From assembly GCA_018971305.1 (NCBI GenBank), contig JAGXBC010000001.1:98284-162283 (forward strand): 64,000 bases of DNA, read 5' to 3'. The notes beneath the pieces are model-generated. The model worked only from the letters and a program-made list of their open reading frames with translations, had not been told where the DNA came from and did no database searches. This DNA is from Patescibacteria group bacterium. GTDB taxonomy: Bacteria; Patescibacteriota; Minisyncoccia; UBA6257; 2-01-FULL-56-20. The position numbers and the translations under genes were made by a program. This document shows, piece after piece, positions 732 to 45,451 of the stretch (position 1 is the first letter of the stretch; each line of letters opens with the position of its first letter).

Positions 732-856
<125 letters not shown>

Positions 857-1099: not shown

Positions 1100-1276
1100 A
1101 AAATTTCTCGCTTGAAGAAATTTATCGCGGTTCTCGGGAAGGGAAAGTTGTAGTAAGTCAGCATTGGGATGGTTGGCGTGTATTAGTACTCCTTGGCTTA
1201 AACCCTTGCGGGCCTTACACCTAGAGCCTATCAACGTCGTAGTCTTCAACGAACACATGATACCTAATCTTGGGGT

Positions 1277-1310
<34 letters not shown>

Positions 1311-1428
1311 CTTCCCGACATAGCTACCCGGCGCTTCAGTTGGTACCAAAGCCGGTAGACCAGAGGTCAGTTCAGCCCAGTCCTCTCGTACTAGGGCCAA
1401 CTCCCCTCAAGTATTAACGCCTGCAACA

Positions 1429-1469
<41 letters not shown>

Positions 1470-2125
1470 ACGTGCCACTTTAATTGGCGAACAGCCAAAC
1501 GCTTGGGAGCTTCTACACCCCCGCGCTGTGGCGAGCCGACATCGAGGTGCCGAGCGAAGTCGTCGATAGGAACTCTCGGACTTCACCAGCCTGTTATCCC
1601 CGGAGTAGCTTTTATCCGGTGTCTCCGATCTTTCTATGAAGAATCGTCGGGTCACTAACTTCTGCTTTCGCATCTGCTCGACTTGTATGTCTCGCAGTTA
1701 AGCCGGCTTTTGCGTTTACACGTCCTGCCCGATTTCCATCCGGGCTAAGCCGACCTTAATAAACTCCTCCGTTACTCTTTTGGAGGAAAACGCCCCATTT
1801 AAACTGCCTACCAAGCACTGTCCCGGTGAGATTTCCATTGTTAGGTTTCTCACTGGTTAGACGTTAAAGTTTTAAAAATGGCTGTTTCATTGTCGGATCC
1901 ACGGCGCCCGAGAGCACCGCTTCAAATCCTCACCACTACGCTACGTAGTAAAACTCTAAAATCAATACCAAGCTGCAGTAAAGCTTCCGGGGTCTTTTCG
2001 TCCCGCTGCAGGTATCCCGCGTCTTCACGGGAATCGCATTTTCACCGAGCTTGCCTCTGAGACAGTTCTCTGATCGTTACGCCTTTCGTGCGCTTCGGAA
2101 CTTACCCGAAAAGGAATTGCGCTTA

Positions 2126-2825
2126 ATTGTGTTATTCTGCCCGGCTCCTTTTCCGGACAACTCTGCATATCGCTATGCAGTTCGGACTATATCTTATCTA
2201 AACCCGAACCGCTCTGCGGTTTTAGGGCTGACCCCAACATATAGTCTCTGAGGATTCTAAAAACGTTTCTTTCTTCGATTCGTTTTGCCTGCAAATTTTA
2301 AAATCTTCTGCCATCCATTTTTTGTTAGGTGTTTCTTTCTCGCCATATCCGCAACAACTTTCTTAAAAATAGAAAAGTCGTTTATTTTATATGTTCGGAG
2401 TGGAAACCTATCAAAGAATGGAATAATAGTGCTTTGCAATTCCGAAATTGACCTTACGCAATAGCGATAAAGATGTTCATGATGATTATCGTATCGTTTA
2501 TTCAGAACGATACTGCCACAACTAAAAAATTCTTTTATCGCTTCTAGCGCTTTTAAACTTTTAGCGCCTTGTGTAATTACGAATTCCGGAAAAATTTGCT
2601 TGCCGAATCGAGTGGTCGGATTCTTGATAACCGAAATTACGAAGCTTCCTTCGCCATCGGTAAATCCAGAAATCCAACTTGCCATTTTTAGCCTTTCCTG
2701 CTGATTGTCTGCACCGAAAACTTTTTTACCTGGCATAATATATCTATGGACGTATTATACCATAGTAGTCTCGGATTCTCCAGATATTCCAGCATATAGT
2801 TGAGTTTTACTAAAGCAACGCATTC
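2126..2825 (-). mobile_element. Group I intron in the 23S rRNA. It is inserted between exon sequences that correspond to E. coli ...CGGTCCTAAGGT|AGCGAAATTCC... (about position 1917).
   Basis: Exon homology to 23S stops after ...CGTTCTAAGGT (complement of 2826-2836). It resumes at AAGCGCAATTCCTTTTCGGGTAAGTTCC (complement of ~2124 downward). The ~700 nt between encode a LAGLIDADG ORF. Boundaries are good to +/- a few nt. Confidence 0.7.
2257..2736 (-). CDS. LAGLIDADG-family homing endonuclease (single-motif, I-CreI-like), encoded inside the intron.
   Basis: 159 aa containing ...WISGFTDGEGSF..., the LAGLIDADG motif. It lies wholly within the 23S interruption. Confidence 0.85.
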   Translation of the reverse strand: MPGKKVFGADNQQERLKMASWISGFTDGEGSFVISVIKNPTTRFGKQIFPEFVITQGAKSLKALEAIKEFFSCGSIVLNKRYDNHHEHLYRYCVRSISELQSTIIPFFDRFPLRTYKINDFSIFKKVVADMARKKHLTKNGWQKILKFAGKTNRRKKRF

Positions 2826-5035
2826 ACCTTAGAACGATTATAGTTATCGCTGACATTGACGAGGGCTTGAGCCGGTGGGCAGTACATATTGCTACATACC
2901 ACTCCCAGCCTTGACCTTCTCGCATCGGTCAGGCGTCACCCCCTATACATCCTCTTGCGAGTTCGCAGGGAGCTGTGTTTTTGGTAAACAGTCGCCAGAG
3001 AGACTTTCGCTGCGGCCCTTCAATGAAGAAGGGCAGGCCATATCGCTAACTTACGGCCGCTTTTTTGCCGAGTTCCTTAGAGGCAAATCACTCGTTCCCC
3101 TTGGGCTTCTCGCCCTATCCACCTGTGTCGGTTTCCGGTACGGATCCCACATAACATAAACACCGCGCTTTTCTCGGAAGGCTATTCGTCGAAGTTTGCG
3201 GAGTAAATTCTCCGCATTCCCGCTCTCCCGGCCGGAGCCTTAGAGCACGGATGCCAAACCAATAAGGCACTTCGATTTATTTCCTTCGCACACTATGTGT
3301 AATTATGCGGGAGGGACGGAATATTAACCGTCTGACCATCAGCTGCGGCTTTCGCCATTGCCTTAGGACCGCCTAACCCGTGGTTGATTGCCAGTGCCAC
3401 GGAAACCTTGGATTTTCGGGGTTCCAATTTCTCATTGGGATTGTGGTTACTCATGCCAACATTTGCTCTTCGTACCGCTCCACGCGCCCTCGCGGGTCGG
3501 GCTTCAACGCAATACGAATGCTCTCCTACCACACCAATGCACAGCATTGGAAGCTCCAAACTCCAAAAATACAATTTCCAAACGTTTGGAAATTAAATAC
3601 TTGGAATTTGAAATTTCCAGTGCCATGCACTGGCATTCATATCTTCGGTACCATGCTTAGCCCCGGTACATTTTCGGCGCACATCGCCATCGAATAGTGA
3701 GTTGTTACACACTCTTTAAAGGATGGCTACCTCTAAGCCAACCTACTATCTGTCTATGGCGACACACTACCTTTAACACTTAGCATGGATTTAGGGACCT
3801 TAGATGATGATCTGGGCTGTTGCCCTCGCGACCATGGAGCTTAGCCCCCACAGTCTGACTAATGGAATTTTGACTCTTGGTATTCGGAGTTTGATTGATC
3901 TGTCGGCCTTTCGGCCTTTACAGATCATCCAGTGCTCTACCCCCAAGAGGAACTTCCACCGCTAGTCCTAAAACTATTTCGGAGAGAACCAGCTATTACC
4001 AGATTCGATTAGCTTTTCACTCCTTACCTCAGGTCATCCGAAGGTTTTGAACAACCAACCGGTTCGGGCCTCCAGTCCGCTTTCGCGAACTTTCACCCTG
4101 CCCAAGGCAAGCTCATCTGGCTTCGGGTCTATACTGCACTGCTTTATTTCGCCCTATTAAGACTCGGTTTCCCTATGCGTACATACCATTTAGGTACTTA
4201 CACGAGCAATGCAAAAATAAGTCGTTGGCTCATTCTTCAATAGGCACACTGTTGTCCTCGTTCTTCCTCTCGAAAAAACGTTCGGACTTCAGTTCCTTGT
4301 AGACAAATGGTTTCAGGTTCTATTTCAACGGCCTCACCGGCCTGCTTTTCGCCTTTCCCTCACGGTACTTGTTCACTATCGATCATCAAAAGTATTTAGC
4401 CTTACCAGATAGTACTGGCAAATTCCTTCGAGACTGTTTGACCTCGAAGTACTCAAGATGCAGCTTGATTTAACTCTTGCTGCAAAAAAACTAAGAAGTT
4501 CTCCGGTTTTCGCCTACCGGGCTATCACCGTCTTTGGCGCCCCTTTCCAGTGGGCTTCGACTAACCGAAAAATTTGTAACTTCTCCTTATTCCGTAAACC
4601 GCCAAATCTCCGACTCCGCCAGACGGCGGATCGGAAACTCGGCGATTCAAAGAACAGAGTTTTTTTCTTTTTACCCCAAGCTCTAAAACTTAGAGCTTAG
4701 TTTGGGCTCTTCCCTTTTCTCTCGCCGATACTAAGGGAATAACGTTTGTTCTTTATTCCTCCGCTTACTGGAATGTTTTACTTCAGCGGGTTTGCTTTCG
4801 GCTTACGCCGAAAAATTGAGGTTTGCTCAATTGGGTTTCCCCATTCGGAAATCCCCGGATCGCAGGTTGCTACGCACCTCCCCGGGGCGTATCGTTGCTA
4901 CGCCACGTCCTTCATCGCCTTTTGATGTCTAGGCATCCACCATTCGCCCTTATTGCCAACCATCCCAATACTGACTTTTTGCCGAGACTGAGAGAAAGAG
5001 GTCTCTATTATAAATAAAGAGACCGGAGTTTTTGC

Positions 5036-5108
5036 AGGCACGGGCAGGAATCGAACCTGCGATTAGATGGCTTGCACACCATCCGCCTTACCACTTGGCT
5101 ACCGTGCC
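5036..5108 (-). tRNA. tRNA, most consistent with tRNA-Cys(GCA), but the anticodon loop is non-canonical at 8 nt.
   Basis: Minus strand reads GGCACGG-TA-GCC..GGC-G-GATGG-UGUGCAAG-CCATC-TAATC-GCAGG-TTCGATT-CCTGC-CCGTGCC-T. Acceptor and T arms are canonical. The discriminator is U73, as in tRNA-Cys. The anticodon stem GATGG/CCATC leaves an 8-nt loop that contains GCA. Confidence 0.5.
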
Positions 5109-5149
5109 GAGCTAAAAACTAAAAATGAAAAAACAAAGAGCTAAGGGTT

Positions 5150-5226
5150 TGGTCGGTCCGGCTGGATTTGAACCAGCAACCTCCTGCTCCGACAGCAGAC
5201 GCGCTACCAGGTTACGCTACGGACCG
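5150..5226 (-). tRNA. tRNA-Arg-like (anticodon UCG), with G at position 33 and an encoded CCA.
   Basis: Minus strand reads CGGTCCG-TA-GCGT-AACCTGGTA-GCGC-G-TCTGC-TGTCGGA-GCAGG-AGGTT-GCTGG-TTCAAAT-CCAGC-CGGACCG-A-CCA. Acceptor, D and T arms are canonical. The loop UGUCGGA gives anticodon UCG, with G33 in place of the usual U33. Confidence 0.5.
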
Positions 5227-5454
5227 ACACAAAATTTCCTTCTCTCAGTCTCGGCTATGCCCTGCCCGCCACGAGAAATTGTACTCTGGAAAATAAAATG
5301 TTGTTCGAAAATGCGATTGTATTTTCAGAGATCCCGCTCCGCCAAATGGCGGACGGAATAAGATGTGACGCAGGGCTTCTGATATTTTCGCCCGACTCTA
5401 CATTTCGGGCGCTACCTAAAGTCGATAGTTTATAAAGCTGCGATCGGCTCAGGA

Positions 5455-5481
5455 GCAACAAAAAACCGCTTCGTAAAGCGG
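5455..5481 (-). terminator. Candidate Rho-independent terminator on the minus strand, upstream of the tRNA-tRNA-23S-5S transcription unit.
   Basis: The minus strand reads CCGCTT-TACG-AAGCGG followed by TTTTTTGTTG. Confidence 0.35.
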
Positions 5482-5617
5482 CGTTCATGCACCAAAAAGC
5501 GCATGCGAATCAGCCGCTTGTACTTAGGAGTTTTTTACAGATATTCATTCTTGAAGTTCATTATACTCCCCCGGTAAAACATGTCAAGGGCATAAGAATC
5601 TGATAAGATATAGCATT

Positions 5618-6616
5618 ATGACCGCCAAGAAAGCCATAAAAAATTGGCACATAGGAAAAATTTTCGGACTTTATCCTGTCTCCACGGGGATATTTAACGA
5701 AACACATATCGCACGCTCCAACACTGGCGTGTATGTTCTGCAAAGACTGCATCCTCTTATATCAAGAAAAGGACCGACAGAAAATTATCTGGCTGCATCG
5801 GTATTTCTCGCGAGCAAAAACCTGCCCGCCCAGAGAGTTATTCTTACGAAGCGCGGCAATCTGCTTGCTAAAGATGGCGATCGTTTTTGGAGATTGCTTA
5901 CCGCCATACCAGGGCATGTTTACAATAAAGCGAAAAATATAAAAATGGTCGGGGAAGCCGGGATGCAGCTTGGAAAATTCCATGCGCTTTTCAAAAGTTT
6001 TCGTGGCCAGATTAAAAAACCTTTACCGATGTTCCAATACGATAATGTCCTGAAAAATCTTAGACGCCACTCAAAAGAATTTTTCGCCGACAAAAATATC
6101 GCCGTTCGCGAAGCGGCTAAATTTCTGCTCGCAGAATTTCCCAAAAATTTTCTTCCCAAAAATCTTCCCCGCCGCCTCATCCACACCGACCCAAAAATTT
6201 CCAATTTTATTTTTGACGATAAAGACAACGCCGTCGCGATGATAGATATGGACACCATACAATACCTTTCCCCGCTCTACGACCTGGGCGATGCCCTGAG
6301 GTCTTTCTGCGGCAAAAAGGAGGACGACCCGAAAAATAAATTCGATATAAAAAAATATAAAGCGTTCTTAGCCGGATATAAAAAGAGTTCCGGCAGTTAT
6401 CTGGGCCGCAAGGAATGGCAACTTATCCGGCAGGCAACCGGGCTCGTAATTTTGGGCCTGGCAACCCGATTTTTGAACGATTACGTGGACGATTTCTACT
6501 TCGGCTGGAATCCGAAAAAATATAAATCAAGAAAAGAACATAACCTCGCCCGCGCATTGGGACAAATTGCGCTGTATAAAGATTTTAGAAGTAAGGTTCA
6601 TGGAGAACACTGGTAA
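5618..6616 (+). CDS. Aminoglycoside/homoserine-kinase-type phosphotransferase (APH family).
   Basis: 332 aa. Contains an HTDPKISNFIFD catalytic-loop-like motif (H-x-D-x4-N) and a DMDT..Y motif typical of the APH/choline kinase fold. Confidence 0.6.
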   Translation: MTAKKAIKNWHIGKIFGLYPVSTGIFNETHIARSNTGVYVLQRLHPLISRKGPTENYLAASVFLASKNLPAQRVILTKRGNLLAKDGDRFWRLLTAIPGHVYNKAKNIKMVGEAGMQLGKFHALFKSFRGQIKKPLPMFQYDNVLKNLRRHSKEFFADKNIAVREAAKFLLAEFPKNFLPKNLPRRLIHTDPKISNFIFDDKDNAVAMIDMDTIQYLSPLYDLGDALRSFCGKKEDDPKNKFDIKKYKAFLAGYKKSSGSYLGRKEWQLIRQATGLVILGLATRFLNDYVDDFYFGWNPKKYKSRKEHNLARALGQIALYKDFRSKVHGEHW

Positions 6617-6671
6617 GATATTTGTTTTTGCTATTTTACTCTTATTTAGATAATATTTTGCTATAGTTTTC

Positions 6672-6743
6672 TATAAAAAATCGGGCCGTAGTATACCGGT
6701 AGTACGTGCGCTTCGGGTGCGCAAAGACCGGGTTCGATTCCCG
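6672..6743 (+). tRNA. tRNA-Pro(CGG).
   Basis: CGGGCCG-TA-GTAT-ACCGGTA-GTAC-G-TGCGC-TTCGGGT-GCGCA-AAGAC-CCGGG-TTCGATT-CCCGG-CGGCCCG-A. Anticodon CGG, G37. Confidence 0.85.
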
Positions 6744-6798
6744 GCGGCCCGACATAACTGCCAGAGCGGTAGGAATACCATCCTTGCCAAACTTTACG

Positions 6799-8588: not shown

Positions 8589-10082
8589 TTATTTAACGTG
8601 GTGTTTTTCTTTGATCTCCTCCTCGACGCCATCCTCAAATTCATCTTTGCGGTTTTTGGCTTTTTCCGCAAGCTTTTTAAGATCGTTGTCAGACATACTG
8701 CCCAGTTCTTTTACTCTCTCCTCCAGTTTTTCTTTGTCGTTACCTTTCGGTTCATCCAAAACCTCCTCTAAAAGGACCGATAAAACCCAACCAACGCGCG
8801 GTCCGGGCGGTACTTCTAAAATTTTCATCACATCATCACCGCGCACCGCAAGCATCTTCGGAGAAATAGGATCACGCTTGACTTTATCTATCATAAATAA
8901 AAGGTGGCGCAGTTTATAGGGAAACGCCTTGGGCACTCCCGAGCCGATCCTGTCAGCTTCGCGGACTTGCAACAGCTCATCAACGCTTTCCGGACCGACG
9001 CGAGCTAAAAACCTGCGCACCCCGGCGGCGGATACTTCATCGGTGTTGTAATAAAACATATGATAGCGGACAAGGTGTGCCACTTTCTCGGAAAATTCTT
9101 TGGGGAAGTGCAGGCGGTCAAGGGAGATGGTAGCAAGTTTTGCTCCGATATATTCGTGCTGATAAAAAGTCGAGTCCGGACCCTCGCCCCTCTTTGATTT
9201 CGGCTTGCCCACATCATGTAAAAGCGAGGCCAATCGCACTTCGGTCGAATAATTTTGCTTGGCGGTGTAATCGAGAGCACGCACGTTATGTTCGAAAACT
9301 GTGTAAATATGATGCTTATTCTGGCCGACATTTATCCCCTCACGCAGCTCGGGAATAACGTTCCTCAATAAATTAAGTTCTTCCAAAAGAATTATACCCT
9401 GGGCCGCGCGCGGACAGTTTAGAATCTTTATGAACTCGTCGCGGATGCGCTCTTTGGCTATCATCTCCAGTTCGCCGGAAAGTTTTTCGATGGCCTTACG
9501 CGTGCTTGGCTCTATCTGAAAATCCAACTCAACGGCAAAGCGGACCGCGCGCATTAGGCGCAACGCATCTTCAGAGAAACGCTCCTCTGAGTTGCCCACC
9601 GTACGAATAATTTTATCCTTCAGGTCGTCTTGCCCCTCAAAAGAGTCGATAATTTCACTTTTCTTCCCAACAACATCAAGCGCGAGGGCATTTATCGTAA
9701 AATCGCGCCTGGCCAGGTCTTCTTCCACCGTTTTGGCAAACTTAATTTCGTCCGGATGGCGTTTGTCGGTATATTTTCCTTCTATTCTATAAGTAGTAAC
9801 CTCCACAACCTTAAGCCGCGGGTCTTCCGACTCGGTTTTTATGCCAACTGTTCCAAAATCATTTTCATAAACCGTGGCGGGCTTGTCCTCCGTAGCACCA
9901 GCAAAGGAGGAAAATAATTTCTGCACTTCTTCCGGTTTGGCATTCGTAGTTATATCCCAATCTTTCGGCTCTCTTCCCAGCAAAAGATCGCGAACACAGC
10001 CGCCAACAAGATGGGCGTCGTAACCGGCCTCATTAAGCCTCTTCCCGATTCTTTTAACCTCTTTGGGGATGTCGTAATTCAT
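8589..10082 (-). CDS. cca: CCA-adding tRNA nucleotidyltransferase with an HD domain, plus a Lys/Glu-rich C-terminal tail.
   Basis: The N-terminus has GGCVRDLLLGREPKDWDITT, the PolyA_pol head signature. HDVGKP marks the HD domain. 497 aa. Confidence 0.8.
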   Translation of the reverse strand: MNYDIPKEVKRIGKRLNEAGYDAHLVGGCVRDLLLGREPKDWDITTNAKPEEVQKLFSSFAGATEDKPATVYENDFGTVGIKTESEDPRLKVVEVTTYRIEGKYTDKRHPDEIKFAKTVEEDLARRDFTINALALDVVGKKSEIIDSFEGQDDLKDKIIRTVGNSEERFSEDALRLMRAVRFAVELDFQIEPSTRKAIEKLSGELEMIAKERIRDEFIKILNCPRAAQGIILLEELNLLRNVIPELREGINVGQNKHHIYTVFEHNVRALDYTAKQNYSTEVRLASLLHDVGKPKSKRGEGPDSTFYQHEYIGAKLATISLDRLHFPKEFSEKVAHLVRYHMFYYNTDEVSAAGVRRFLARVGPESVDELLQVREADRIGSGVPKAFPYKLRHLLFMIDKVKRDPISPKMLAVRGDDVMKILEVPPGPRVGWVLSVLLEEVLDEPKGNDKEKLEERVKELGSMSDNDLKKLAEKAKNRKDEFEDGVEEEIKEKHHVK

Positions 10083-10781: not shown

Positions 10782-11924
10782 CTACCTTATTTCGGCGTTG
10801 AATTGACCCTTTGTCTCATCTATAACTTTATTCTGTAACGGTTCTATCTCTTCGGTCTTTAGTGTCCGCTCGTTGGAACGATAGATGATACGGTACGTGT
10901 AACTAATTTTATCCACCCCGAATTTTTCCGCATTCTCATATTTATCAAGCAGCGAAACTTCTTCAACGAGATCCCCTCCTATATCGCGGATAAGGTCAAA
11001 ATAATTATTCGGCACAAAGCTCTTATCTACTACAAAAGAAATATCACGCGTGATGGGCGGGAATTTGCTGACCTCTTTGAATTTCTGTCCAAGTTTTAAT
11101 TGACGAGTGACGCGCGGATCGTTGGACCACAAAAGCCGGATATCCGGAAGCTGCATACTCAAAATCGCCAGGCGCTCCAAACCAAAACCAAAAGCCCAAC
11201 CGTTCCAGATTTTTGAATCCACGCCCAAATTGTCCAGAACTTTTGACTGTACGACGCCGCTCCCCAAAACTTCCACCCAATTGCCGGCCAGATCAATCTC
11301 CATTTCCAAACTCGGGTCCGTATAAGGAAATGTGTCTTTATTAAAACGATACTTAATATCTTTTCCGTAAATCGCCTGCGCGATTTTTACCAAAACATCC
11401 TGTAGCTCCTTGATGCCGATTTCTTTTTCTTCCCTGCGGCAAAGATACCAGCCGTCTATCTGATGGAAAACATTCATGTGCTTGCGGTCTATTTCGTCCT
11501 TGCGGTAAACCTTGCCATAAGAAAGCGCGCCAACGGCCTCTCCTTTCTTTATCTTTTCTTTCACCGATTCAAGCCCAAGCCAGTAATACCACATTATAGT
11601 GGTGTGCGTGCGCAAAATATTGGCGTCGTCCACGTAATACGTGTCCGAACGGCTCCGCGCCGGATGATCCGGAGGAAAATTAAATAAGTCAAAGCTTTCC
11701 TTGACGGGAACTATTTCCGGAACGTTTATCACGTCGAAATCCTTGAAGTCGGGCAGGGTTACCACTCTCTCGGCCAATTCGTGGATAGGATTTCCCGGCG
11801 TACGCGAAAGGTCCGGCATGTCCAAAAACCGCCGCATGCGCGCGGCCTCGGCGTCTGTGCGTTTTTCAAGCACTATCCGCAAACGTTTTGCCCCAGAAGA
11901 ATCGATTGTTGTTTCTTTGTGCAT
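10782..11924 (-). CDS. pheS: Phenylalanyl-tRNA synthetase alpha-type catalytic subunit fused to a C-terminal FDX-ACB anticodon-binding domain (monomeric, mitochondrial-like architecture).
   Basis: Class II aaRS motifs are present: motif 2 is FPPDHPARSRSDTYY and motif 3 is GWAFGFGLERLAIL. The C-terminal ~95 aa (FPPITRDISFVVDKSF...ERTLKTEEIE...) closely resembles the FDX-ACB domain normally found at the C-terminus of PheT. The long N-terminal coiled coil of bacterial PheS is absent. Confidence 0.8.
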   Translation of the reverse strand: MHKETTIDSSGAKRLRIVLEKRTDAEAARMRRFLDMPDLSRTPGNPIHELAERVVTLPDFKDFDVINVPEIVPVKESFDLFNFPPDHPARSRSDTYYVDDANILRTHTTIMWYYWLGLESVKEKIKKGEAVGALSYGKVYRKDEIDRKHMNVFHQIDGWYLCRREEKEIGIKELQDVLVKIAQAIYGKDIKYRFNKDTFPYTDPSLEMEIDLAGNWVEVLGSGVVQSKVLDNLGVDSKIWNGWAFGFGLERLAILSMQLPDIRLLWSNDPRVTRQLKLGQKFKEVSKFPPITRDISFVVDKSFVPNNYFDLIRDIGGDLVEEVSLLDKYENAEKFGVDKISYTYRIIYRSNERTLKTEEIEPLQNKVIDETKGQFNAEIR

Positions 11925-45286: not shown

Positions 45287-45358
45287 GCCCTCGTCGTTCA
45301 ACGGATAGGACGCAAGATTGCGGATCTTGTAATCGAGGTTCGATTCCTCGCGGGGGCA
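45287..45358 (+). tRNA. tRNA-Arg (anticodon GCG).
   Basis: GCCCTCG-TC-GTTC-AACGGATA-GGAC-G-CAAGA-TTGCGGA-TCTTG-TAAT-CGAGG-TTCGATT-CCTCG-CGGGGGC-A. Accessory DNA begins directly downstream. Confidence 0.75.
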
Positions 45359-45451
45359 CAAGCTAGTGAGACCCCTCTCGATACCGAGAGGGGTCGGTGC
45401 GTTGCCCAGCCTAAAATTGACAGAGGAAAAGGAAAGTAGAATATTTAATGC

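Follow-up and report, generated by a model that had tools for sequence, protein, structure and literature searches.

This study was concerned with two transfer RNA (tRNA)-like genes that lie directly upstream of the 23S ribosomal RNA (rRNA) gene in a 64-kb stretch of Patescibacterial DNA, the whole of which is referred to here as the window. On the minus strand the order is leader, tRNA, tRNA, 23S, 5S, and the two tRNA-like genes lie between the arms of a long inverted repeat. The upstream gene will be called slot A and the downstream, Cys-type gene slot C. Loci of relatives are designated by L numbers. The features of the window that are needed below are listed in their minus-strand order.

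5256..5281, minus strand: most conserved block of the leader, CAATTTCTCGTGGCGGGCAGGGCATA, invariant between the window and L003
5237..5255, minus strand: 5' arm of the cassette-closing stem, GCCGAGACUGAGAGAAGGA (inverted repeat and minimum free energy (MFE) fold)
5150..5226, minus strand: upstream tRNA-like gene, slot A (ARAGORN, tRNA-Arg(tcg); Rfam tRNA model, 57.0 bits)
5134..5144, minus strand: spacer motif TTAGCTCTTTG, followed by a T-run, conserved in L003
5036..5108, minus strand: downstream Cys-type tRNA gene, slot C (ARAGORN, tRNA-??? '(gc)'; Rfam tRNA model, 58.3 bits)
5000..5024, minus strand: small hairpin (GGTCTCT...AGAGACC) just before the 3' arm (MFE fold)
4981..4999, minus strand: 3' arm of the cassette-closing stem, UCUUUCUCUCAGUCUCGGC (inverted repeat and MFE fold)
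4955..4977, minus strand: 5' strand of the 23S processing stem, pairing with 1155-1177 (inverted repeat)
1167..4963, minus strand: 23S rRNA gene, 3797 nt (Rfam)
736..851, minus strand: 5S rRNA (Rfam)

The gathering score of the Rfam tRNA model is 29 bits, and both genes have the cloverleaf with U8, A14, G18G19 and a T-loop of the form UUCRAWU. Neither has the canonical anticodon loop of 7 nt with U33 and a purine at position 37. Slot A has a perfect cloverleaf with C1-G72, A73 and an encoded CCA, and its positions -1/-2 pair with 73/74; its anticodon arm, UCUGC-UGUCGGA-GCAGG, places a G at position 33. The anticodon arm of slot C is 18 nt long instead of 17, GAUGG-UGUGCAAG-CCAUC, which can be read as an 8-nt loop or, equally, as a 6-bp stem with a U.G closing pair and the 6-nt loop GUGCAA. 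Slot C also has the D arm GCCAAGUGGUAAGGC, a GCA anticodon and U73, of which the last two agree as Cys identity, and it has no encoded CCA. The odd loops of both genes, first pointed out in a preliminary description of this DNA, were thus confirmed by ARAGORN, by Rfam and by reading of the sequence.

That description also raised the possibility of assembly indels. A single-base indel in a normal tRNA gene would give an 8-nt loop, and many of the related genomes are long-read metagenome-assembled genomes (MAGs). However, two Logan assemblies, each built from a separate short-read sequencing run, are 100% identical to the window and span both genes (SRR32006840, L001, over window positions 4940-6711; SRR32006850, L002, over 4954-6706), so that three assemblies have identical loops. 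In addition, the 18-nt Cys-type arm recurs with a different sequence in a sister species, L003 (Microflora Danica MAG MFD03726.bin.1.80, in which the neighbouring protein is 75% identical and the gene order is the same), and the G33 of slot A is a substitution that involves no indel. The indel suggestion was therefore not borne out, and the chance that the loops are sequencing or assembly errors is negligible.

A second explanation is that both genes are working decoders with unusual loops, slot C being the sole tRNA-Cys (for UGU/UGC, with an 8-nt loop) and slot A reading Arg CGA/CGG or Pro CCG despite its G33. CGA and CGG make up 150 of the 591 Arg codons in the window (25%), so that some reader of these codons is needed somewhere. 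Slot A, however, has several properties that argue against this explanation. First, it has G33 in place of the near-universal U33. Secondly, it lacks A20, an ArgRS identity element, which all five canonical Arg tRNAs of the examined loci have. Third, its body is Pro-like. The combination of C1-G72 and A73 is the bacterial tRNA-Pro signature, CGG is present in the loop but shifted by one base from the anticodon position, and 1.5 kb away, at 6682, there is a canonical tRNA-Pro(CGG). Slot A looks, from its sequence, like a paralog of tRNA-Pro(CGG) whose anticodon is one base out of register, and this tRNA-Pro gene is the likely donor of the Pro-like cassette members, namely slot A of the window and the third element of L070. 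Pairwise identities of slot A to the candidate parent isoacceptors were all about 0.7 and uninformative because the reference set consisted mostly of Pro and Met genes; thus, C1-G72, A73 and the out-of-register CGG are the only grounds for a Pro origin. A nearly invariant tRNA-Pro(CGG) (window 6682-6753) was also observed 0.5-1.7 kb upstream of the 23S gene in most relatives, on either strand. Lastly, the counterparts of slot A in relatives have other loops.

Window: loop UGUCGGA, nominal anticodon UCG
L003: loop CUGUUCAA, nominal anticodon GUUC (4-base)
L099: loop CGUUCAA, nominal anticodon UUC
L058: loop CGAUUAG, nominal anticodon AUU
L112: loop CUAUUAA, nominal anticodon AUU

The cloverleaf was kept in these counterparts although their loops are unrelated. 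For example, L058 and L099 differ at 3 of 7 loop positions versus 6 of 66 positions elsewhere (p = 0.036), and their stem changes preserve pairing, with one double compensatory change. Between the window and L003, slot A has three double compensatory changes; two pairs are broken in the L003 gene and none in the window genes. With UUC, AUU or a 4-base loop in the counterparts, CGA/CGG must be read by another tRNA in L003 and the other relatives, and the absence of a UCG gene from the L003 cassette implies that a regular reader of these codons must exist elsewhere in that lineage. On this comparison slot A is most likely a non-decoding tRNA-like processing module or paralog.

Slot C is where the decoder explanation finds its best evidence. 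It keeps U73, U33-GCA-A37 and the four stems, and it lacks CCA as the native genes do. The ortholog in L003 has the same 18-nt arm in another sequence, GAGGG-CUUGCAAG-CCCUU. The two genes are separated by five double compensatory changes and one single pairing-neutral change, with no broken pair; all four stems and U73 are kept, the UGCAAG loop core is identical, and the loops differ only at the two 5'-most bases. In either species the first loop base can pair with the last, as U.G in the window and as C-G in L003. The extra nucleotide lies 5' of U33 (UG-U-GCA-AG) and the core from the anticodon to position 37 is normal. A +1 frameshift-suppressor tRNA with a 4-base anticodon was considered for slot C and rejected because of this position; in classical +1 frameshift suppressors the extra base belongs to the anticodon or adjoins it. 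A point in favor of decoding is that the tRNA-Thr(UAG) of yeast mitochondria has an 8-nt loop and is a functional decoder. Compared with known 8-nt-loop tRNAs, slot C has an 18-nt arm with an intact U33-GCA-A37 core, the additional base 5' of U33, and first and last loop bases that can pair. ARAGORN identified no second tRNA-Cys in the window, and complete Patescibacteria genomes nearly always have exactly one tRNA-Cys (Table S2, PMC13011429). Because its loop core and stems are conserved, it lacks CCA like the native genes, and tRNA-Cys is usually single-copy, slot C may be the working tRNA-Cys of the organism, charged and decoding. Slot C may be either a module or a real unusual tRNA. The preliminary description had offered two readings of the pair, and each stands in part: that of tRNA-like processing handles rather than decoders agrees with slot A (drifting loops, kept cloverleaf, no A20) and may or may not hold for slot C, while that of a real unusual tRNA, such as a frameshift type, is viable for slot C in its first half and fails in its second. 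That both genes are decoders is considered improbable.

The two genes form part of a larger structure. The arms of the closing stem are 19 nt each, 95% complementary and 237 nt apart, and the arm motif occurs just twice in the window versus 0.15 times expected; no copy of the cassette was found in the window outside the rRNA operon. A 326-nt stretch folds as the closing stem and a multiloop that contains both cloverleaves and the small hairpin (MFE -130.7 kcal/mol, z = -5.6). The build of the cassette is 5' arm, tRNA-like gene(s), small hairpin, 3' arm, and the hairpin is a constant part, as a comparable one precedes the 3' arm in L003, L058, L098, L038, L070 and L110. The spacer motif TTAGCTCTTTG, which we take to resemble boxA, recurs after the first tRNA-like element of a cassette located inside the 23S gene of L070, at helix 45. 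The 23S processing stem (23 nt, 96% complementary, duplex energy -44.7 kcal/mol) starts 4-5 nt past the cassette. The leader block at 5256-5281, which stops exactly at the start of the variable insert and in many relatives lies directly before the insert site, can pair with the trailer 3' of the 23S gene (RNAduplex), so that the cassette would project from the base of the 23S processing helix as a side branch. The closing stem was also considered as a vestige of a 16S processing stem, which was rejected because the tRNAs sit inside the stem and not after it. The enclosing 19-bp stem, the nature of the structure as an insertion cassette and the Pro-like body of the 'Arg' gene had no place in the preliminary description.

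The insert site was compared across relatives, many of which were recovered with a pattern from the 5' flank of the 23S gene. The neighbouring APH-family phosphotransferase served as a synteny probe; of four homologs (75-50% identity) only that of L003 was syntenic with the rRNA operon, and of four further homologs only L115 was informative, as L114 stops short of the insert and synteny was absent from L116 and L117. A metagenome scan with the leader and arm pattern gave two matches only, one of which (L113) is identical to L099, so that the orthologous sample is small. The conserved leader block (...GCAGRGCAT) and the 23S stem flank the junction, the content of which is variable.

L037: nothing
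L015, L051: small hairpin
L048, L023: long hairpins
L115 (neighbouring protein 74% identical): AT-rich hairpin
L003: the same purine-rich arms around three tRNA-like genes
L099 (= L113): the same purine-rich arms around two tRNA-like genes
L058, L112, L060: the same purine-rich arms around one tRNA-like gene each

In the inner part of the arms, the changes between species are solely switches between G-C and G.U, and the base of the stem was exchanged wholesale in a compensatory manner (GCC...GGC versus CUUAUU...AAUAAG). The middle gene of L003 (slot B) is Tyr-like with C33, and a canonical tRNA-Tyr is encoded on the same contig. The tertiary 19-56 pair of slot B has apparently been swapped from G-C to C-G, by reading of the sequence, which suggests selection on shape.

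This variability could also be expected if the genes were neutrally decaying tRNA duplicates, that is, pseudogenes in a tolerated and excised part of the leader with no role of their own. The number and identity of genes at the site vary among close relatives (0, 1, 2 or 3 genes), slot A of L003 has its two broken pairs, slot B of L003 duplicates the canonical Tyr gene, and strongly degenerate tRNA-like remnants are present in the 23S genes of L070, L059 and L067. The window genes, however, have Rfam scores (57-58 bits) that match those of canonical tRNAs, and instead of decay there are 3-5 double compensatory changes per species pair that includes the window. The 19-56 pair in slot B is swapped and not lost, and the damage, instead of being distributed over the whole molecule, is focused on the anticodon loop.

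Cassettes are not confined to the leader. In relatives, Rfam and ARAGORN also gave tRNA-model matches that lie within the 23S gene and have its orientation; relaxed ARAGORN settings (-ps90) gave nothing beyond the genes found with default settings.

L098:3045-3116, minus strand: tRNA-model match within the 23S gene
L038:2328-2504, plus strand: tRNA-model match within the 23S gene
L070:742-815, minus strand: tRNA-model match within the 23S gene
L064:147-310, minus strand: tRNA-model match within the 23S gene
L067:988-1062, plus strand: tRNA-model match within the 23S gene
L020:5361-5434, minus strand: tRNA-model match within the 23S gene
L110:227-497, plus strand: tRNA-model match within the 23S gene

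The insert sites were placed by comparison with the 23S gene of the window, the Rfam alignment and the flanking sequence. Cassettes at the tip of helix 45, the classical site of intervening sequences (IVSs), were found in L098, L038, L070, L064 and L067, with degenerate remnants in L059, and cassettes at the tip of helix 63 in L020 and L110. The intragenic inserts have the same build, with the tRNA-like gene(s) and then a small hairpin between the two arms. At helix 63, the arms GTCGAGGCAGAAAGAAGGAG and GTCGAGGTTGGAAGAAGGAG are identical to the window arm GCCGAGACTGAGAGAAGGAA at 15 of 20 and 14 of 20 positions, respectively, and the spacer TTAG(TA)GCTCTTTGTTTT that follows slot A in the window was found again in the helix-45 cassette of L070. 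The genomes that carry cassettes come from unrelated projects and include the long-read complete chromosomes OY970175.1 and OY970382.1. Some of the 23S-embedded tRNAs have canonical loops, namely Arg(UCG) and Thr(GGU) in L064, both without CCA, Lys(CUU) in L067 and Phe(GAA) in L020; further elements show loops of 6 nt or combine a Ser anticodon with a short-arm body. As judged from sequence, the same kind of cassette is present in relatives at three places of the pre-rRNA that are predicted to be excisable, the leader and the tips of helices 45 and 63. LAGLIDADG introns and other insertions are known from rRNA genes of the candidate phyla radiation (CPR), and a comprehensive survey of them does not contain the word tRNA (PMC11270868). 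A full-text literature search found no published description of tRNA-like cassettes in Parcubacteria 23S genes or pre-rRNA. The tRNA pair of the window belongs to what is apparently an undescribed family of tRNA-like cassettes in Patescibacterial pre-rRNA.

Some helix-45 inserts are of unusual form. Those of L070 (at 23S positions of about 1280-1370 in that locus) and L059 contain degenerate tRNA-like elements, GGGGCG...CGCUCCACCA, with G3.U70, A73 and CCA (an acceptor of the alanyl-tRNA synthetase type or like that of transfer-messenger RNA) and no normal D arm. In the helix-45 tRNA-like element of L067, the loop closed by the anticodon stem CCUAG/CUAGG measures about 85 nt and not 7, and the acceptor, T arm and CCA are normal.

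The distribution over three sites raises the question of a selfish mobile intervening-sequence element, in which the tRNA shapes would serve the excision or mobility of the element and not the host. The same architecture and similar purine-rich arms are seen at the leader, helix 45 and helix 63, the leader of the window and the helix-45 cassette of L070 have TTAGCTCTTTG in common, and presence is patchy among close relatives. An encoded CCA in a clade whose genes lack it could also mean copying from a mature tRNA. However, neither the cassette nor its immediate surroundings contain a transposase, reverse transcriptase or homing endonuclease, a target-site duplication was not observed, and no copy is present in the window outside its rRNA operon. 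The likeness of the arms could, in turn, reflect a requirement shared by the processing enzymes. A selfish mobile element is therefore regarded as a rather unlikely source of the cassettes.

The embedded genes were compared as a class with free-standing ones. After removal of duplicates, the loci contained 22 pre-rRNA-embedded tRNA-like elements and 44 free-standing tRNAs. An anomaly was defined as a loop length other than 7, the absence of U33, a pyrimidine at position 37, A34 outside ACG, or a Ser anticodon on a short-arm body. Anomalies were present in 15 of 22 embedded versus 2 of 44 free-standing genes (p = 6.5e-8), encoded CCA in 17 of 22 versus 4 of 44 (p = 4e-8), and pairing of -1/-2 with 73/74 in 13 of 22 versus 3 of 44 (p = 8e-6). 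CCA is missing from all four free-standing tRNA genes of the window, which encodes a CCA-adding enzyme at 8589-10082. Encoded CCA would favor binding of RNase P and disfavor RNase Z. The decoder explanation leaves the enrichment of anomalies among the embedded tRNAs without a reason. The retention of CCA in most embedded elements of a clade whose own genes lack it weighs against decaying pseudogenes as well, and that explanation is considered unlikely, with some points still in its favor.

Our preferred reading is that the tRNA pair is the cargo of an insertion cassette in the pre-rRNA, with slot A as a non-decoding module and slot C as a Cys-type gene that is possibly used. Several observations count against it, and we hold it to be evenly balanced between true and false. 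First, slot C behaves as a real tRNA, with its conserved core, its five compensatory changes and, as in native genes, no CCA. Secondly, several embedded tRNAs look fully canonical (those named above for L064, L067 and L020, and the Gly(GCC) of L099), so that the cassettes may simply carry working tRNA genes. Third, pairing of -1/-2 with 73/74 should hinder the binding of RNase P to the RCCA end, and its frequency argues against simple optimisation for RNase P. Lastly, orthologous cassettes at the leader site are few, from 5-6 species.

The transcription signals upstream of the cassette were as follows.

5560..5587, minus strand: sigma-70-type promoter (TTGACA, 16 nt spacer, TATAAT), 12/12 consensus matches
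5465..5482, minus strand: terminator-like hairpin and U-run in the leader (GCGGCTGATTTTTTT type), clade-conserved

The promoter at 5587-5560 is kept in position and sequence in L003 and further relatives. It is the only strong promoter, and a second, weaker promoter-like match (9/12) at 5345-5316 is likewise upstream of both tRNAs; thus, the stretch between the tRNAs and the 23S gene has no promoter. We infer that tRNA, tRNA, 23S and 5S form one co-transcribed minus-strand unit. Successive blocks of the leader are conserved in L003 (mean column identity 79%) and also in many Paceibacterota, Parcubacteria, Liptonbacteria and Minisyncoccia MAGs. The hairpin at 5465-5482 follows the rRNA promoter at a distance of about 80 nt and is found clade-wide in 23S leaders; it may be an attenuator or an antitermination target. 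An inverted repeat of 120 nt (562-681 / 1017-1136, 79% complementary) surrounds the 5S gene, which is an unusually long processing stem for 5S.

With the tRNA pair read as the cargo of an insertion cassette, we infer a processing scheme from the sequence. The primary transcript from 5560-5587 would fold so that the cassette arms, the cloverleaves and the stems of 23S and 5S form. RNase III would cut the long stems, and RNase P with 3'-end enzymes would cut at the tRNA shapes; slot C, which lacks CCA, could be a substrate of RNase Z. The leader would be dismantled as a result, and in relatives with intragenic cassettes the 23S rRNA would be fragmented. Selection on slot A would act solely on the L-shape, the acceptor end and CCA, which would let its anticodon loop drift. 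Slot C would be a conserved Cys-type RNA with one extra nucleotide 5' of U33 that is processed likewise and may still be charged and used.

The closest functional analogues are the t-elements (PMC4326828, PMC1920247), non-decoding tRNA-like signals at which RNase P and tRNase Z generate the ends of the RNA whose precursor contains them; they are known from plant mitochondrial transcripts and, in Haloferax volcanii, from the region upstream of 5S rRNA. Slot A is like a t-element in its position in the precursor of another RNA, its kept fold and its drifting anticodon loop. In the window, a tRNA-like fold is part of the predicted precursor of another stable RNA and has the same orientation, and the absence of decoder constraint holds for slot A only. 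The differences are several. T-elements are archaeal or organellar and the window cassette is bacterial; it has full cloverleaves with encoded CCA, in groups of one to three across cassettes; it is enclosed by a long stem and its family also occurs within 23S helices. In addition, the tRNA ends in the window do not abut the mature 23S end, which is about 70 nt further on, and cleavage here is a prediction. Tentatively, the family may be a bacterial counterpart of t-elements in Paceibacteria-type Patescibacteria, consisting of stem-closed, CCA-ended, mostly non-decoding cassettes that punctuate the pre-rRNA, by which RNase P/Z and RNase III would remove the leader and cut some 23S rRNAs, and of which one member, in the lineage of the window, is possibly the only tRNA-Cys of the cell and would decode with an 8-nt loop; we consider this broader proposal somewhat doubtful.

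Ordinary spacer and distal tRNAs, of which tRNA-Ile/Ala between 16S and 23S are examples, belong to the rRNA transcript, from which RNase P and 3' enzymes release them together with RNase III cuts in the rRNA stems. Predicted co-transcription with rRNA is common to these and the window genes. However, spacer tRNAs are canonical essential decoders between two processing stems, whereas the window genes have non-canonical loops and identities that vary among close relatives, and they lie inside a stem of their own in an operon without 16S. The closest structural analogues are the classical IVSs of helix 45. Like them, the cassette is an extended stem that the pre-rRNA tolerates at its point of insertion and that only some relatives have, and several relatives carry cassettes exactly in helix 45. 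IVSs of 23S rRNA in helix 25 or helix 45 are excised by RNase III without religation and are patchy in distribution (PMC11270868, PMC4990558). The window cassette has the long closing duplex (19 bp, 95% complementary) and the patchiness of an IVS; its location, in the leader at 4981-5255, is not that of helix 25 or 45. Known IVSs hold a hairpin or a small open reading frame (ORF), whereas the cassettes hold tRNA-like genes. Relative to these analogues, what is new is a bacterial, stem-closed and multi-copy family with full CCA-ended cloverleaves at three sites.

If the interpretation is true, bacteria with tiny genomes reuse the tRNA shape as a general cut signal for rRNA maturation, which has hitherto been documented in archaea and organelles. 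Some unexplained insertions in CPR rRNA genes would be accounted for, fragmented 23S rRNA would be predicted in some species, and annotators would be warned against taking tRNA calls beside or within the rRNA genes of such genomes for decoders. In slot C there would be a natural test of whether bacterial ribosomes can use tRNAs that have an additional base 5' of U33.

The preliminary description had also reported an operon without 16S. No Rfam match to small-subunit (SSU) rRNA at the gathering threshold was found in the 64-kb window, including at least 59 kb upstream of the 23S gene, and likewise none was found in 21 kb of the syntenic L003, in agreement with that report. The approximately 390 nt further upstream, by which together with the following plus-strand CDS it excluded a 16S gene within reach, are not empty; they hold the 12/12 promoter and the clade-conserved leader. 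The 16S rRNA of this Paceibacteria-type Patescibacterium is presumably encoded elsewhere, and an operon without 16S is ordinary in Patescibacteria and unremarkable alone. Unlinked rRNA genes were already known in the phylum (bioRxiv 10.1101/705046); the same separation of 23S-5S from 16S is seen in Patescibacteria and other reduced genomes, and the cited work concerns gene order only, with no mention of tRNA-like cassettes.

Several further features were observed in the window. The 23S gene contains an intron of about 700 nt (approximately 2124-2826) with an ORF at 2257-2736 on the minus strand that encodes a LAGLIDADG_1 homing endonuclease (Pfam E = 5e-23). This intron is not present at that position in L098, L112 or L003, and the insertion at 2124-2826 was below the gathering score of the Rfam group I intron model. 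An IVS-like, AT-rich and nearly perfect hairpin of about 100 nt, without a tRNA, is located at the tip of helix 45 of the window 23S (approximately 3534-3633), and its sequence predicts a fragmented 23S rRNA in this organism. Similar AT-rich 'aatttctaa' hairpins were found in helix 45 of L026, in helix 63 of L003 and at the leader site of L115. No sign of an altered genetic code was seen, as table-11 ORFs yield normal Pfam domains. A tRNA-Arg at 45287-45359 has the anticodon GCG (G34) and not the usual bacterial ACG, as is also the case in L064, which suggests that CGU/CGC would be read without inosine. In addition, a single-chain phenylalanyl-tRNA synthetase (PheRS) of 380 aa, with a class II core and an FDX-ACB domain, is encoded at 10782-11924 on the minus strand. 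Among solved structures it is closest to the human mitochondrial monomeric PheRS (E ~ 1e-58); bacterial alpha subunits follow (E ~ 1e-38).

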